DNA of 63,947 nt, filler included, from an uncultured Gemmatimonadota bacterium (GTDB lineage Bacteria; Blakebacterota; Blakebacteria; Blakebacterales; Blakebacteraceae): assembly GCA_964576115.1 (NCBI GenBank). It is 4 parts of 4 records of this genome, joined end to end, with 100 filler letters (N's around TTAATTAATTAA, not from the genome) between each part and the next. Parts side by side here need not be neighbours in the genome. Positions count along the whole stretch, not along the records: positions 38,340 to 57,191 come from CAZNUA010000058.1; 3 more parts are not named here. The stretch is one strand, 5' to 3'. The position numbers were made by a program, and so were the translations under genes. Shown piece by piece: positions 38,455 through 52,604 of this stretch; position 1 is the first letter of the stretch, and each line of letters opens with the position of its first letter. The notes beneath the pieces were generated by a model. The model ran no database searches. It saw nothing but the letters and a program-made list of their open reading frames with translations, and was not told the DNA's origin.

Positions 38455-38789
38455 GCGGTGAGGGCGGAGCAGATCTGTACGGTTATCTCGGACTTGCCCG
38501 GAAGGGCGGCAACCTGGTATGGGGGCGCGATGCGGTCCGTGATGCAGTCAGGAGCGGTCGGGCGGCGCTCATCGTCCTGAGCGCCGATGCCGGAACAGCC
38601 CTGGTCAGGAGCATGACCGGTTCCGGGCGGGCGGCGGAGGTACCGCTGCTCGTCTACGGAACCAAAGAAGAGATGGGAAGAGCCCTCGGTCGGCACGAGA
38701 CGGCGGTCGTCGCCGTGACCGACCCGGGACTTGCGGAAGCGGTTCGGAGATCAGCCGGGACCGCACCTCGCAAACGGAGGAACGTTTGA
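38451..38789 (+). CDS. Ribosomal L7Ae/L30e-family RNA-binding protein (YlxQ-like)
   Basis: LGLARKGGNLVWGRDAV, LIVLSADA, GTKEEMGRALGR, VVAVTDPGLA; upstream of infB. Confidence 0.88.
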   Translation: MSGEGGADLYGYLGLARKGGNLVWGRDAVRDAVRSGRAALIVLSADAGTALVRSMTGSGRAAEVPLLVYGTKEEMGRALGRHETAVVAVTDPGLAEAVRRSAGTAPRKRRNV

Positions 38790-41545
38790 CCAAGCAGAAC
38801 CGCGTATACGAGCTGGCGAGACAGTACAAAATCTCGAGCCAGGCCATGATAGATGTCCTGCGCAATCTGGACTTCGAGATCAAGAGCCACATGAGCCCTG
38901 TCAACGAGGACATGCTCGAAGCTGTGGAGAATTATTTCGAAGGCCAGCGGGCCGAGGCCAAGGCTGAAGAGGCCCGCAAGCAGGAGGTGGCCGAAAAGGC
39001 GAAAGCCATCAAAGAAGCCGGGAAGGTAGCGGCCAAGGCCAAAAAGGAATCCGAGGCCGCCGCTGCCGAAGTTGCGGAAGAGGGTGAAAAGCACCCCCGG
39101 GTTCGAGCCGCGGATGACAAAGTCAAACTGGCCGAGAAGCTCACCCGGGCGCGTAGCGAAGAGGAGCGGCTGCGTCGTCAGGCCGAAGAAACCAAGCGGA
39201 AAGCAGAGGAGAAGCTCGCCGCACCGGTCGAGGAAAAGGGCGAGGAAGAGGAAGCGGTAGAGGTCGCCGAGAAAGAGCCCGAAGCTGTGCCGGTCGAGGC
39301 TGCAGAGCAACCAGAAGAAGCCGCGGCTCCCGTCGCCGAAGAGGCTGAAGAGATCACCGAAGCCGCCGAGGCCGTGTCCGGGGAAGAAGCCGTCGGGGAG
39401 GCGGAAGAGGTCGAGGCCGAGGTTGAAGCTGAAGCCGAAGTAGCAGAAGGAGAAGAGGCCTTGACTGCCGGGCGTTTGACCGGGGCCAGCCTGCGCGAAC
39501 GGATCAGGCAGAGCAAGGAAGCCCGCGAGACCGAGGGCACGGGGCCGCGTATCATCGAGAAGCGGGCTCCACAGGTCAAACAGCGTCGTTCGGCCGCCCG
39601 TCCCGCAGCCGAGATTCAACCCCAGCGGAAAAAGAAGAAAAAGCGCAAGAAGGGCCGTCGCGAGGTCGACCAGGAAGAAGTCCGCTCGACCATCAAGGAA
39701 ACCCTGGCGGATATCCGCAGCGGCCGCTCCCGGCCGGCCAAGAAACGCCGCCGCGAGTCGGGCGAGGCAGAGGTGGTCGAGGGCGAAGAGGAGCGGATGG
39801 TCATCCAGGTGACCGAATTCGCTTCGGTCTCCGAACTCGCCTCGCAGATGGATGTGGGAGCCAACGATATCATCGCCGCCTGTTTCCGGCTCGGTCTGAT
39901 GGTGACGATCAACCAGCGGCTCGACATGGAGACGATAGAGTTCATCGCCGACGAGTTCGGGTATGAGGTCGAGTCAATCGAGGAGTACGGGGCCGATTAT
40001 TTCGAGGAGGTCGTCGAGGAAGAAGAAGGAGAAGCAGTCTACCGGGCTCCGGTCGTCACCGTCATGGGGCACGTCGACCACGGGAAGACCTCGCTGCTGG
40101 ACTATATCCGCCGGACCAAGGTCGTGGCGGGCGAGGTCGGCGGCATTACCCAGCACATCGGGGCGTACGAGGTGGAAACCGAAGGCGGCAATGTCACCTT
40201 TCTCGACACTCCGGGCCACGAAGCCTTTACCGCCATGCGAGCCCGGGGAGCGACCATGACCGATCTGGTGGTTCTGGTCGTGGCGGCCGACGACAAGGTC
40301 ATGCCGCAGACGGTCGAAGCGATCAACCACGCCCGTGCCGCCGGGGTGCCGATCATCGTGGCGATCAACAAGATCGACCTGCCCGATGCCGATCCCGACG
40401 GTGTCAAGCAGCAGCTCACCCAATACAACATCGTGGTCGAGGATTTCGGGGGCGAAACGGTCGCCGTGCCGGTCTCGGCCAAGTCCGGAGAGGGGATCGA
40501 CCGTCTGATCGAGATGATCCTGCTCCAGTCCGAACTGCTCGAACTCACAGCCGTACGAACCGGGCTGGCCCGTGGGGTGGTGCTCGAATCCGAACTCGAC
40601 CGGGGCCGTGGACCGGTGGCGACGGTGCTGATCCAGAAGGGGGTTCTCGAGGAGGGCGATCCTTTCCTGGCCGGGCAGTATTCGGGGCGGGCGCGGGCTC
40701 TGTTCGACCCCCGCGGCAAGCCCCGGCGCGACGCCCATCCCAGCCAGGCGGTTCAGATTCTGGGTTTCGACGGGCTGCCGCAGCCCGGGGACACCTTCTA
40801 CACCCTGGCCGACGAGAAAGAAGCCCGGGCGCTGTCGCAGAAACGTCAGCAGATCAGGCGCGAGCAGGAGTTCGCGGTACGAGATTCGACCGCCCTGAGC
40901 GACGTACGCAAGAAGATCGAGGAGGGCGAGATCGAAGCCCTGCCGTTGATCGTCAAGGGGGATACCGACGGTTCGGTCGAAGCTCTGGGCGACTCGCTCA
41001 TGAAGCTGAGTACCGATGAAGTGCAGGTCCGCGTGATCCACAAGGGCGTCGGGGCGATCAACGAAACCGACGTCATGCTGGCCCAGGCTTCGGACGCCAT
41101 TATCGTCGGTTTTCACGTGCGTCCCGCGCGGGCGGCGCGCGAGGCCGCCGAACAGGCCGCGATCGAGATCCGCACCTACGACATTATCTACGAGGCGGTC
41201 GAGGATATCCGGCAGGGGCTCGAAGGACTGCTCAAGCCGCTCATCGAGGAGAACGTCACCGGCACGCTCGAAGTCCGCGACACTTTCCGCGTTCCCCGGG
41301 CCGGCACGATCGCCGGCTGTATGGTCGTAGAGGGTTTGATCGAGCGCAAAAGCCGGGTCCGGCTCGTCCGCGAGGGGGTGGTTGTCTACGAGGGCCGGGT
41401 CGGGAGCCTGAAACGGTTCAAAGACGACGTCAAGGAGGTCAAGGAAGGCTACGAGTGCGGGGTCGGACTCGAGAACTTCAACGATGTCAAGGTGGGCGAC
41501 GTGATCGAGGTCTACGAGCGCGAAGAGATCGCCCGGACCCTGTGA
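38786..41545 (+). CDS. infB: Translation initiation factor IF-2
   Basis: [61 protein letters not shown] start. Confidence 0.99.
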
Positions 41546-49314: not shown

Positions 49315-51279
49315 ATGAGTTCACGGATCGACCAGAGCTATCTCGAGTACTGGGGTTTTCACCGGGCGCCTTTCGCCCTGACTCCCGATCCCGACATGCT
49401 CTATCTCTCCAAGCAGCACCGCGAGTGCCTGCTGCGGCTGCAGTATGCCATTGCCGGCAACAAGGGCGGGGCGCTGCTGGTGAGCGAAAATCCCGGCGAC
49501 GGCAAGACCAGCGTCCTGCGCCGGCTCGAAAAAGATCTCTCGGCCGCCGAGAACGAGGAGTACCGGATCGTCTTCATCGATCATCCCACCCTGACTCCCA
49601 ACCAGATGCTCTGGGAGATGCTCCGTCAGCTCGGTCTGGGTGAGGTGCGGGGCGAAAAGATCCAGAACCTGCTGCAGCTGCGTGAAGCCCTGATCGAGAT
49701 GTACGAGCGGGGCCAGCGCTGCGTTTTCATTCTCGACGAGGGCCAGCTCCTGGCCGACCGCCCCGAACTGATGCAGGAATTCCGGGTGCTGCTCAACTAC
49801 ACCGTGGGGGACACCTTCCTGCTGACCTTCATCTTCAGCGGCCAGAGCGAACTCGAGGGCGCGATGAAGCGCCTGCCCGAATTCTACCAGCGCCTGCCGG
49901 TCCGCTATTTTCTGCACAGCATGGATCTGGCCGATACCGGCCGGATGATCAGCCATCGCCTCAAAGTGGCCGGGTACGGGGGGCCGCCCCTGTTCAGCGA
50001 GAGCGCCGTGCGGGAGATCTATCGTTATTCTCAGGGCATTCCCCGGGTCATCTGTTCGGTGGCCGATCTCTGCCTGGTCGTCGGACACAGCCGTTCGGTC
50101 CGCGTCATCCACGACAGCGAAGTCTTCATGGCCGTGCGCGATCTCGATCGCACCACCCAGGACGGGTATCACTACTACCACTTTCTCCGTTCGGCCGGTT
50201 CGTCCTCGCCGGAGGAAGAAGAGGAGATCCTGGCCGCCGAAGCCGAGCGCGACCGGCAGGAGGCCGAGGCCGCTCTGGAACGGCTGGAGAGCGCAGAGGC
50301 CGGTGAAGATGAGGCCGTGGTCACGACGCTGTCGGCCCAGATCGAGGCCTGGACGCCTTCTGAGGAGGCCTCAGAGCCTTTTGAGGGCGATTCCGGGACC
50401 GCCGTCGTCCCCGACGATGAAGCCGAACCGGAAGCGCCCGTTGAACGGGACCTCGGGGCTGTCGAGGAATCCCGGGACGAACCCGAACCGGAACCGGAAA
50501 CCGGACCGGAATATGAACCTGTACCGGAACCGGAACAGGAGCCCGAGCCGGAACCGGAACCAGAGCTGGAACCGGAACCGGAGTATGTCCTGCCCGAAAC
50601 CGGTGTGGAAGCGGCCGAGGAGGACGTCGTACCGGTCGAGCCCGTCCGGCCGCTCTGGATACGGGATGCAGATGACGAGGCGGAGCTGATTCACTGCCCC
50701 CTGTGCGGTGTGAGCCAGCCGGCCGATCGGACCACCTGCGTGCAGTGCGGCAGCCCGTTGTACTGGATCTGCCCCTCATGCCAGCATCGCAACACTGCCC
50801 ATCGGCCGCGCTGCGATCGCTGCGGTCAGAGCCTGTCCCGGGCGGTGGCCGACGTGGAAGCGGCCCTGCGCGACACCATCTCCACCTCGGCGGCGGCCGC
50901 CGACTGGGGGGTGTTGACCGCCCCTGATTTCAGCCTCAACCTGGCCGAGGGCGAGAAGATTCTGGCGGTCGTGAAAAACAAGCCGCTCTTCGGACGGGGA
51001 ATCACGATTCGGGCCCGGACCGACGCCTGGGGAGAGCGGGAGAAGAAGGCGACGATCGTCCTCACCAATCACCGCCTGCACGTCGTGGCTGCCGAACTGC
51101 AGAGCCGCGTACCCTATCACGAACTCCAGGGAGTGAGGGCCACCCGCGGCAAGATTCATCTCTTCCATGGCTCCGGCGGTGTCCGGCTAAGCTACCCCGC
51201 CACCGATACGGGGGTCTACGAACTCGTCCGGGCCCTGATCGAGTTCCTCGATTTCCAGATCCGCAGGTACCGGGTGTGA
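49315..51279 (+). CDS. ExeA/GspA-like AAA ATPase fused to acidic Glu-Pro linker, double zinc ribbon and PH-like C-terminal domain
   Basis: YLEYWGF..APFALTPDP..LYLSKQH, SENPGDGKT, FILDEGQ, GQSEL, SQGIPRVI; CPLC/CVQC/CPSC/CDRC; IVLTNHRL. Confidence 0.85.
   Translation: MSSRIDQSYLEYWGFHRAPFALTPDPDMLYLSKQHRECLLRLQYAIAGNKGGALLVSENPGDGKTSVLRRLEKDLSAAENEEYRIVFIDHPTLTPNQMLWEMLRQLGLGEVRGEKIQNLLQLREALIEMYERGQRCVFILDEGQLLADRPELMQEFRVLLNYTVGDTFLLTFIFSGQSELEGAMKRLPEFYQRLPVRYFLHSMDLADTGRMISHRLKVAGYGGPPLFSESAVREIYRYSQGIPRVICSVADLCLVVGHSRSVRVIHDSEVFMAVRDLDRTTQDGYHYYHFLRSAGSSSPEEEEEILAAEAERDRQEAEAALERLESAEAGEDEAVVTTLSAQIEAWTPSEEASEPFEGDSGTAVVPDDEAEPEAPVERDLGAVEESRDEPEPEPETGPEYEPVPEPEQEPEPEPEPELEPEPEYVLPETGVEAAEEDVVPVEPVRPLWIRDADDEAELIHCPLCGVSQPADRTTCVQCGSPLYWICPSCQHRNTAHRPRCDRCGQSLSRAVADVEAALRDTISTSAAAADWGVLTAPDFSLNLAEGEKILAVVKNKPLFGRGITIRARTDAWGEREKKATIVLTNHRLHVVAAELQSRVPYHELQGVRATRGKIHLFHGSGGVRLSYPATDTGVYELVRALIEFLDFQIRRYRV
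50479..50583 (+). repeat. Degenerate 6-bp tandem repeat (GAACCG) encoding a Glu-Pro linker
   Basis: EPEPEPETGPEYEPVPEPEQEPEPEPEPELEPEPE within the ExeA-like gene. Confidence 0.8.
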
Positions 51280-52604
51280 GCAGCCGGTTGCGCATGCTTG
51301 CTGCCGCGGCACTGATTGCCGCGCTCCCCGCGCCGGTACTGGCCGGCGATCCCCCCCCGGGACCGCCGTGGACGATGACCTGGTCCGAGGCCCGGACCCG
51401 GGCTCTGGAACGCGGACAGCCGATCTTTATCTATTTCACAAAGACCTACTGACCGCACTGTGTCCCGCTGGAGCGGGACGTTCTCTCCAATCCCGGCCTC
51501 GAGCCCTGGTACGGCCGGGTGACCTGGCTCTTCGCCAATCGCAATTTCGCCTGGGACCACCGCGACGAGATTCTATCCGGACCGGCCCCGGACCTGGCCG
51601 CCGTTCCCGACTCGGTGACGGCCGACCTCGAAGCCCTGCGGATACACGATCGCTTCGGAATATCCTCCTGGCCGCAGATGATCGCCTGCGATCCTCGCGA
51701 TATGCGCCTCTTCGGTTCTCCGGAGCGCACGGTCGAGAGCGTGGAGGCCCTGCTGGACCGGGCCTGCGAAGAGATGGCCGCCGCCTCTTCTCCCCGCCTG
51801 CCGCCGCCGGTTCTGGCGGCCGAGGAGCTCGAAAAGCTCCTGCTGCGGGTCGAGCGCAGTTCGGCCCCGGCCGAAGTACTCAGTACTGCGCAGAAACGGG
51901 TCCTGAACCGGCTCCTGTCCGATGAGGGCAGCGATATCGTACTGCGTCTGCGGGCTCTTCAGATCGTGATCAGGACCGATCCGGCACACGTGAGACAGCT
52001 GGCCCCGGCCCTGCTGCAGGTGCCCAACGATCCCTTCCGCTACGCCGTCATGGGCGTTCTGGCGGCCGATCCCGATCCGCGTACCGAGCCCGATCTGCTG
52101 AGAATCTTCCGGTTGGCGGGCCAGGAGGTTGCGAGCCGCAATCCCAATGTCCTGCGCATCAACGCCGTACGGGCCCTGGGACCCGGCGGCGGTTCCGCGG
52201 CCGTGGCGGCTTTCTCCGACGTGCTGGCCGACCCCGATCCGCGCAATTACCTGCACCGGCTGCTGGTCGAGACCTGCGGCCAGATCGGCGCCCGGACCCC
52301 GAGGGATGCGCGGGGTCCGATCCTGGAGGTACTGCTCGGGGCGGTGCCCGGCCCGGTCGCGGCCGGCGCTGATGAGCAGACAGCGAGAATCGAGGAGCGC
52401 CTGGCTCTGGCCATGGTCCGCAGCGTGCGGACGGCCCTGGCCGCCATGGGCGGCGAGGAGGGTCTGCCCGCGGTCCCTGCACAGTGGGGCGAAGCCGAAT
52501 ATCGGGCCTGGCTCGAGGCCCTGCGGGCGGCAATCGGCTCCAGGAGCCAGCGCAAACCACACCATCGTCGGTTACTCCGACAGACTCCTGCCGCGGTCCG
52601 TTGA
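51276..52604 (+). CDS. Probable selenoprotein: exported thioredoxin-like domain (UxxC) plus HEAT-like helical region
   Basis: GTG overlaps upstream stop; signal peptide; WSEARTRALERGQPIFIYFTKTY-[TGA 51450-51452]-PHCVPLERDVLSNP continues in frame into the ORF called at 51519; cis-Pro loop RFGISSWPQ; SECIS-like hairpin. Confidence 0.8.
51462..51479 (+). promoter_or_regulatory. Candidate bacterial SECIS element
   Basis: GTCCCGC-TGGA-GCGGGAC perfect 7-bp stem; loop starts 16 nt after the in-frame TGA with G at loop position 2. Confidence 0.7.

Follow-up and report, generated by a model that had tools for sequence, protein, structure and literature searches.

The stretch of DNA analysed here (63,947 nucleotides, filler included; hereafter the window) comes from an uncultured Gemmatimonadota bacterium (assembly GCA_964576115.1), and positions 51276–52604 raise a question: does an in-frame TGA codon at 51450–51452 end a gene, or does it encode selenocysteine (Sec, U) in a longer gene, the product of which would join an exported thioredoxin (Trx) domain to a HEAT-like solenoid? 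Our analysis indicates that the apparent stop most likely encodes selenocysteine and that gene callers cut the gene short. We consider it very probable that the product is a true selenoprotein. That 51276–52604 is one selenoprotein gene truncated by standard gene calling is the explanation that we favour as a whole, and with its mechanism included we still regard it as probable.

A 442-codon frame cut short by gene calling

Translation of the window gave a frame of 442 codons that opens with GTG 51276 and ends at TGA 52602–52604, and the sole internal stop in this frame is the TGA at codon 59. The features concerned are the following:

51276–52604, plus strand: proposed Trx7-HEAT selenoprotein gene, running from a GTG start to a TGA stop with the Sec-TGA at codon 59 (442 residues; homologs align over its full length)
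51450–51452, plus strand: in-frame TGA proposed to encode selenocysteine (U59), with which the redox motif U-P-H-C (51450–51461) begins
51519–52604, plus strand: short open reading frame (ORF) under translation table 11 (361 residues; an identical protein, P0002, is present in the protein collection)

GTG 51276 overlaps the stop of an upstream ORF (49315–51279) in a GTGA overlap and is the presumed start codon; TTG 51288 and ATG 51294, both in frame with it, could serve instead. Table 11 gives an ORF that begins at GTG 51519, 81 codons 3′ of GTG 51276. A previous reading of the window made from its sequence alone (the sequence-only reading) had extended this ORF by 81 codons in the 5′ direction, through one in-frame TGA to a GTG, giving a protein of 442 amino acids; we reproduced these coordinates and found every peptide string that it quoted in the translated frame. 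The peptide flanking the TGA reads FIYFTKTY-U-PHCVPLERDVLSNP, and the read-through protein also contains RFGISSWPQMIACDP, LRLRALQ, FRYAVMGVL, and LRINAVRALG. When the window was screened for other TGA-bridged ORFs with Cys- or Sec-like motifs, 69 candidates were obtained, among which only that at 51450 places a UxxC motif beside a recognisable Trx-type strand (FIYFTKTY).

The same truncation is visible in the databases. A protein search retrieved 36 relatives of the window protein, 5 of which are full-length in the alignment (one is cut at the N-terminus) and read FIYFTKTYCPHCV. Most of the others start right after the motif (VPLERD..., MLPN...) or at NRNF, which is expected when gene callers stop at a TGA. 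Members of the family are named “hypothetical protein” or “HEAT repeat domain-containing protein” by NCBI, and these entries are N-terminally truncated.

The TGA codon is authentic and conserved

The sequence-only reading had named an assembly error as one way in which its proposal could fail. Four public sequencing runs from three studies each contain 97% or more of the gene's sampled words, and their Logan contigs span 51276–52604 in one piece with 0 to 2 differences, none of them at 51450–51452; three of these runs are possibly the source of the window DNA and hence not independent, and the fourth carries no such flag. In two runs A is replaced by C at 51440, 10 bases upstream of the TGA, a change that is synonymous because it leaves Thr encoded four codons 5′ of the TGA. 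A metagenome contig separate from the window (L036) is 99% identical and carries the TGA too. The TGA, unchanged in the contigs of the four runs and in L036, is not an error.

To the DNA of the window we compared that of homologs, namely 35 loci from species-representative genomes and 45 metagenome loci, 7 of which end before the TGA column. In the 74 sources that cover this column (73 loci and the window), the in-frame codon is TGA in 71, TGC in 2, and TGT in 1. After removal of duplicates, 69 distinct sequences remained, 66 with TGA (96%) and 3 with Cys, and neither Trp nor any residue besides Sec and Cys was present at this column in any of them. The alignment is continuous across the Sec site, with in-frame UGA in the 66 sequences aligned to Cys in the other 3, and is conserved on both sides, the pattern that had been put forward as support for selenocysteine. 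In all homologs that reach it, the frame 5′ of the TGA encodes a hydrophobic signal-peptide-like N-terminus, a PPxGPPW motif, and an F-[VI]-Y-[FS]-T-K-T-Y strand. The redox motif itself is U-P-A-C instead of U-P-H-C in 6 of the 35 genome loci.

Members of the family are present in Planctomycetota and in a small lineage labelled Gemmatimonadota by NCBI. Among 401 evenly sampled Planctomycetota species genomes there were 28 strong full-length matches (E ≤ 1e-97, about 7% of the genomes), each with a TGA inside, and one weaker match (8.6e-57) without an internal stop. The GTDB phylum of the closest relative comprises 9 genomes; the family is present in 2 of them, with the TGA in both. In a quick maximum-likelihood tree (60 rows, each of at least 280 residues; midpoint root), the three Cys forms are three separate tips among Sec forms, a distribution consistent with repeated replacement of Sec by Cys.

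The tree also groups the window clade (the window, L036, L037, L001, L006, and L039) with L010, among Planctomycetota sequences. This placement, despite the clade's separate small GTDB phylum (9 genomes), hints at a transfer between phyla. The homolog at L006:10130-11351 (protein P0030) is split into two overlapping ORFs after approximately residue 260, in the HEAT domain, which is a frameshift or an assembly error, and a second family fragment lies at a contig end (G002:C205) of the same genome. Weaker, TGA-containing matches confined to the Trx domain (E approximately 1e-11 to 1e-14) were found in Planctomycetota rows G130, G159, G331, G302, G192, G263, and G301; these may represent additional selenoproteins of the Thioredoxin_7 type with a different architecture.

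Hairpins downstream of the TGA

Bacterial selenocysteine insertion sequence (SECIS) elements are hairpins, and we found a candidate immediately past the TGA of the window:

51460–51481, plus strand: candidate bacterial SECIS hairpin (arms GUGUCCCGC / GCGGGACGU; 7 Watson-Crick and 2 G-U pairs)

Its 9-bp stem carries the loop UGGA at 51469–51472, which begins 16 nt past the UGA. In the 7 sequences with this window-type hairpin, the stem is identical in 6 although the flanking codons vary. A hairpin is present 3′ of the TGA in every lineage, and its sequence varies by lineage. The type A hairpin of Planctomycetota (45 distinct sequences) has a bulged stem and the loop AGUU at nt 29–32. In this set 92.1% of the cells were paired, versus 81.7% in shuffles, and the covariation score was 0.298 versus 0.108, values that 0 of 500 shuffles reached in either case; controls in which the structure was slid along the sequence gave at most 68% paired cells and a score of at most 0.098. 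Compensatory changes were observed at three pairs. Columns 25 and 36, for example, hold A-U in 17 sequences, G-C in 15, C-G in 8, and G-U in 1, with no unpaired case; one partner of this pair is the first position of a codon for Glu, Lys, or Gln, and the other is the synonymous third position of a Leu codon. Leu in the type A loop is encoded by TTG in 45 of 45 sequences, and TTG makes up 10.4% of the Leu codons gene-wide and encodes the conserved leucine of NPNVLR in 5 of 38 sequences.

The type B sequences (13 Sec forms) have AGG GGT in 13 of 13 cases, and in most of them CTC CTC TCC comes next, which yields a hairpin with the stem GGAGAGG / CCUCUCC and the loop GGUCU. Two Cys forms belong to the same clade (L017 and L063). 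Their peptide hardly differs from that of their Sec relatives (Arg is replaced by Lys at codon +8), but they use the codons AAA or AAG, then GGG and CTG, by which the hairpin is destroyed. Altogether, a SECIS element is well supported for the family, but a SECIS function of the window's own hairpin variant is no more than plausible.

Relatives of the window encode the selenocysteine machinery

We searched the genomes of five relatives for the genes of selenocysteine synthesis and insertion. selB was found above the cut-off in 5 of 5, selA and tRNA-Sec in 4 each, and selD in 3. The genome syntenic with the window (G002) has selA, selB, selD, and tRNA-Sec. Two of the three selD matches (G002:C273:7717-8634 and G005:C5:104464-105384) contain one in-frame TGA each, and SelD itself is probably a selenoprotein in these two lineages.

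A probably exported thioredoxin domain joined to a helical solenoid

The protein was divided into domains by profile searches and by an AlphaFold2 model built on an alignment of 43 rows (predicted local distance difference test 92.3, predicted template modelling score 0.88), in which an alpha/beta domain (approximately residues 28–172) is followed by an all-helical domain (residues 176–426):

51276–51347, plus strand: signal-peptide-like N-terminus, residues 1–24 (two Arg, hydrophobic run, VLA-G)
51351–51371, plus strand: PPxGPPW motif, predicted mature N-terminus, conserved in homologs
51357–51791, plus strand: thioredoxin-fold domain, approximately residues 28–172, of the Thioredoxin_7 / DsbD-gamma / DsbH / AGR-ERp19 type
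51651–51677, plus strand: RFGISSWPQ loop, with P133 the presumed cis-proline opposite the active site
51801–52553, plus strand: HEAT/armadillo-like alpha-solenoid, approximately residues 176–426 (conserved motifs DIVVRxRAL, VPNDPFRY, SxNPNVLR)

The same N-terminal layout is found in 35 of 35 genome loci, and the protein is presumably exported to the periplasm. With U read as C, Pfam Thioredoxin_7 (PF13899) matched residues 32–75, a segment that spans the TGA, with an E-value of 2.4e-8 and 34.4 bits (cut-off 27). Thioredoxin_2 (PF13098) gave 19.2 bits, under its cut-off of 27. In the model, a strand (residues 50–56) is followed by the U59–C62 motif and then by a helix (residues 62–70). R126, F127, S131, and P133 are invariant in the 43 sequences, and the role of P133 as the cis-proline is suggested by the general thioredoxin fold. 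Alignment of the Trx domain with VIA-align gave Z 12–13 and a root-mean-square deviation of 2.4–3.6 Å over 115–131 residues to 3f9u, 3ph9, 1sen, and 2ju5; the matched proteins are the exported cytochrome c biogenesis-related domain 3f9u, AGR3, AGR2, ERp19, and DsbH. DsbD-gamma is among the Foldseek rows. For the whole two-domain model, Foldseek returned no match in the PDB at E ≤ 1e-3.

For the second domain, the family profile matches HEAT-derived alphaRep chains with an E-value of 9e-14, and VIA-align gave Z of approximately 11.8 to designed armadillo repeats, although among helical repeats a Z of this size is weak evidence. Residues N251, D252, R255, N289, N291, R294, N324, and R340 are conserved in this domain. 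HEAT_2 (PF13646) reached 21 bits for the window protein, under its cut-off of 27.7, and is precomputed for many homologs. The domain works like a HEAT solenoid, although this one sequence falls outside formal Pfam membership. The sequence-only reading had described an exported protein with a Thioredoxin_7-like pattern, the TGA at the first Cys of CxxC, and a helical scaffold. Each of these elements was recovered: a signal-peptide-like N-terminus in all family members, from which export would follow, an above-threshold Pfam match across the TGA, and a confident AlphaFold model of the scaffold with HEAT/alphaRep and armadillo matches. Among NCBIfam models, Trx7/PDZ (NF041199) gave 11.1 bits against a cut-off of 300, and no other model matched at E ≤ 1.

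Two insertions distinguish members of the family. The window clade carries approximately 20 additional residues in the Trx domain (residues 95–113, WDHRDEILSGPAPDLAAVPDS), which the short Planctomycetota forms lack, and other relatives carry approximately 70 residues between the Trx and solenoid domains.

Proposed mechanism and alternative explanations

The best reading of the protein is that of a periplasmic thiol-disulfide oxidoreductase. UGA codon 59 would be decoded as Sec by SelB and tRNA-Sec, guided by the hairpin that starts 10 nt downstream, to give a product of four parts: the signal-peptide-like N-terminus, the PPxGPPW segment, the Thioredoxin_7-type domain with U-P-H-C, and the tightly packed HEAT/armadillo-like solenoid. 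After export, the selenolate of U59 would attack a disulfide or other oxidised sulfur in a client protein, C62 would resolve the mixed selenenylsulfide, and a DsbD/CcdA-type electron transporter of the membrane would return the resulting U59–C62 selenenylsulfide to its reduced state. Clients would be bound by the solenoid, acting as a platform. A DsbD/CcdA-type transmembrane domain (DsbD_TM) was found in 5 of 5 relatives' genomes, and DsbB and VKOR were each found in 0 of 5 of these incomplete assemblies; we therefore lean towards a protein kept reduced by a DsbD-type donor. The assignment as reductase or isomerase is tentative, its probability falling slightly short of even, and the use of the solenoid as a client clamp is more tentative than that.

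Several observations weigh against this interpretation. At the level of the hairpin, the stem length in the window has p 0.09 against synonymous shuffles, and in 2.6% of the gene's other segments the stem is equally long. Across the family, p < 0.05 was reached in the test of uninterrupted stem length only by type B sequences and L010 (8 of 34 in total), although this test ignores bulges and thus underrates type A. Folding energy compared with synonymous-codon shuffles gave a mean z of −0.68, with p < 0.05 in 3 of 34 sequences and p 0.26 for the window, a measure that does not discriminate in the GC-rich DNA of these genes. The SECIS of E. coli fdhF has GU in its loop, and the window-type loop UGGA is without GU. 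At the level of the machinery, the closest relative (G001), whose neighbouring housekeeping genes are 76–87% identical to those of the window, has no selD or tRNA-Sec above the cut-offs in its fragmented assembly. The 64-kb window itself holds no tRNA and no Rfam match, and selA, selB, and selD were not found in it by tblastn with the G002 proteins. At the level of function, no neighbour is conserved family-wide in gene-neighbourhood clustering of the 35 genome loci, and the P-H dipeptide, known from the oxidase DsbA, counts against a reductase role.

A true selenoprotein could act as a periplasmic oxidase or oxidative-folding catalyst in the manner of DsbA, an alternative that we consider unlikely. 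The P-H dipeptide matches the CPHC of E. coli DsbA, and oxidative folding is catalysed efficiently by selenenylsulfides and diselenides. However, the relatives' genomes have the reducing partner (DsbD_TM, 5 of 5) and not the re-oxidant (DsbB or VKOR, 0 of 5), a weak argument given that these genomes are incomplete, and the U-P-A-C motif of 6 of the 35 genome loci means that the His is non-essential. Less likely again, with a probability that we put as low, is that U-x-x-C acts not on protein disulfides but on a peroxide, or on a metal or metalloid (Cu, Hg, As, or Se species) that it would bind or convert. Several recently described bacterial selenoprotein families have been tied to metal handling (bioRxiv 10.1101/2022.07.06.499078), and in 4 Planctomycetota loci the gene next upstream encodes an ABC-2 transporter. 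Against this, no metal-related gene is conserved beside the family, the ABC-2 neighbour is limited to one subclade, and the fold matches are thiol-disulfide oxidoreductases.

The two remaining alternatives deny that the codon is Sec. A UGA read as Trp (genetic code 4), as Cys, or by near-cognate readthrough is very improbable: the residue that replaces Sec in homologs is Cys and not Trp, selA, selB, selD, and tRNA-Sec are present in close relatives, and the position is that of the nucleophilic Cys of CxxC, the usual Sec site. TGA is not reassigned genome-wide, because the selenoprotein gene itself ends in TGA. Least credible of all, and hardly worth retaining, is a real stop, which would leave either a decayed gene or two genes, one for an exported peptide of 58 residues and one for a HEAT protein that starts at 51519: table 11 does call the 361-residue ORF, the databases hold many such truncated entries, and the window hairpin alone is statistically uncompelling, but the segment of 22 codons from the TGA to 51519 (PHCVPLERDVLSNPGLEPWYGR) shows in-frame conservation in every homolog and completes the thioredoxin fold, the Pfam match spans the TGA, and a nonsense mutation would not persist at one column across two phylum-level groups, where TGA is found in 66 of 69 distinct sequences and Cys in 3.

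Genomic context

The selenoprotein gene lies among housekeeping genes, and the gene immediately upstream overlaps it:

49315–51279, plus strand: AAA_22 ATPase with two zinc ribbons (ExeA-like), the stop of which overlaps the selenoprotein start (GTGA)

This ATPase gave 158 bits with the pepcterm_ATPase model (XrtA/PEP-CTERM-associated), under the cut-off of 324.5. The gene order in the window is PNPase, M16 peptidase, dUTPase, AAA_22 ATPase, selenoprotein gene, a class II tRNA synthetase (tRNA-synt_2, of the D/K/N type), and leucyl-tRNA synthetase (LeuRS). The order from PNPase to the selenoprotein gene is shared by G002; among the loci compared, the gene order of the window is kept only in L001 and L006. 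Likewise, the adjacency of ATPase and selenoprotein gene is kept only in these two loci and not in Planctomycetota, so that a functional link between the two proteins is unsupported. Because no neighbour is conserved and the order is limited to L001 and L006, the context gives no pathway. The large clusters obtained in the neighbourhood analysis were rejected as overlapping-frame artefacts. IF-2 is encoded further upstream in the window (38786–41545), and its GTPase domain accounts for the single tblastn match of the search described above. In one Planctomycetota subclade (L015, L019, L022, and L031), an ATP-binding cassette (ABC) transporter ATPase and an ABC-2 type permease lie immediately upstream on the same strand.

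Significance of the family

The whole family is systematically mis-called, and as a result its redox domain is invisible in the annotation of Planctomycetota and of the window lineage. Because 96% of the distinct members retain Sec, selenium must meet a genuine catalytic requirement in the cell envelope of these bacteria. The chemistry is unsurprising, since Trx-fold selenoproteins of the UxxC kind are already well known; what appears to be new is the Trx7-HEAT architecture. With the fusion in hand, the guidance of an oxidoreductase by a scaffold of helical repeats can be studied on an actual protein, and the family is a natural data set on SECIS hairpins that are encoded in, and co-evolve with, a constrained peptide. 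In its broadest form, our interpretation would be of an almost obligately Sec-dependent family of periplasmic oxidoreductases, shared by Planctomycetota and the small phylum that NCBI labels Gemmatimonadota, in which the solenoid would hold exported polypeptides at U-x-x-C as a selenium-based periplasmic counterpart of the chaperedoxins, and in which at least three SECIS hairpins would have evolved in the same coding segment, written into the codon choice of a conserved peptide. Taken in its entirety, this picture is speculative and we regard it as rather doubtful.

Comparison with known systems

Trx-fold proteins with UxxC are the commonest kind of bacterial selenoprotein. A 2026 review inventories prokaryotic selenoprotein families with their Pfam and NCBIfam identifiers (PMC13188914), and its motif table shows that in selenoproteins with a Trx fold Sec usually takes the place of the nucleophilic Cys of CxxC. 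The families named there include Trx7/PDZ (NF041199, CxxU) and a PF13098 “thiol:disulfide interchange” family (UxxC); HEAT, PF13899, and PF13646 are absent from its available text. BSepDB is described in the main text of its article as holding 111 families and subfamilies (PMC13326102), and HEAT and PF13899 are absent from that main text, the family list itself standing in a supplementary table outside our comparison. A full-text literature search returned no thioredoxin-HEAT selenoprotein. The caution of the sequence-only reading, that the novelty of the architecture needed a search, was right: no Pfam or NCBIfam model and no inventory family was found for it, the supplementary list of BSepDB lying outside the comparison. 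As far as checked, the Sec-containing exported Trx7-HEAT family is not catalogued.

Among characterised proteins, E. coli DsbA shares the P-H dipeptide (CPHC) with the window protein. However, DsbA belongs to another Trx subtype, has an inserted helical domain, uses Cys, and depends on DsbB, which was not found in the 5 relatives' genomes. CnoX/YbbN is a chaperedoxin, the helical-repeat domain of which binds clients. Its architecture, a Trx domain with helical repeats, is analogous to that of the window protein (PDB 3qou; Foldseek rank 14, E 8.9e-3), but it is cytoplasmic and combines Cys with TPR repeats, whereas the window protein combines Sec with HEAT-like ones, and evidence for homology stops at the Trx fold.

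The selenoproteins closest in kind are found in the inventory. The PF13098 “thiol:disulfide interchange” selenoproteins, as they are described in the available text of PMC13188914, resemble the window protein in their exported Trx fold and UxxC motif, but are without the HEAT solenoid and are set apart both by this description and by the model score (19.2 bits against 27). The NF041199 Trx7/PDZ (seleno)protein likewise fuses a Thioredoxin_7-type domain to a second domain; its motif is CxxU and its partner PDZ, as given in the same text (PMC13188914), whereas the window protein has UxxC and HEAT. Finally, the Thioredoxin_7 proteins (DsbD gamma, Chlamydia DsbH, 3f9u, AGR2/AGR3, and ERp19) share with the window protein the Trx subtype, an exported or ER-lumenal location, and the position of the motif. 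They use Cys and are single domains or have other partners, whereas the family described here has Sec in 66 of 69 distinct sequences and a C-terminal HEAT-like solenoid.

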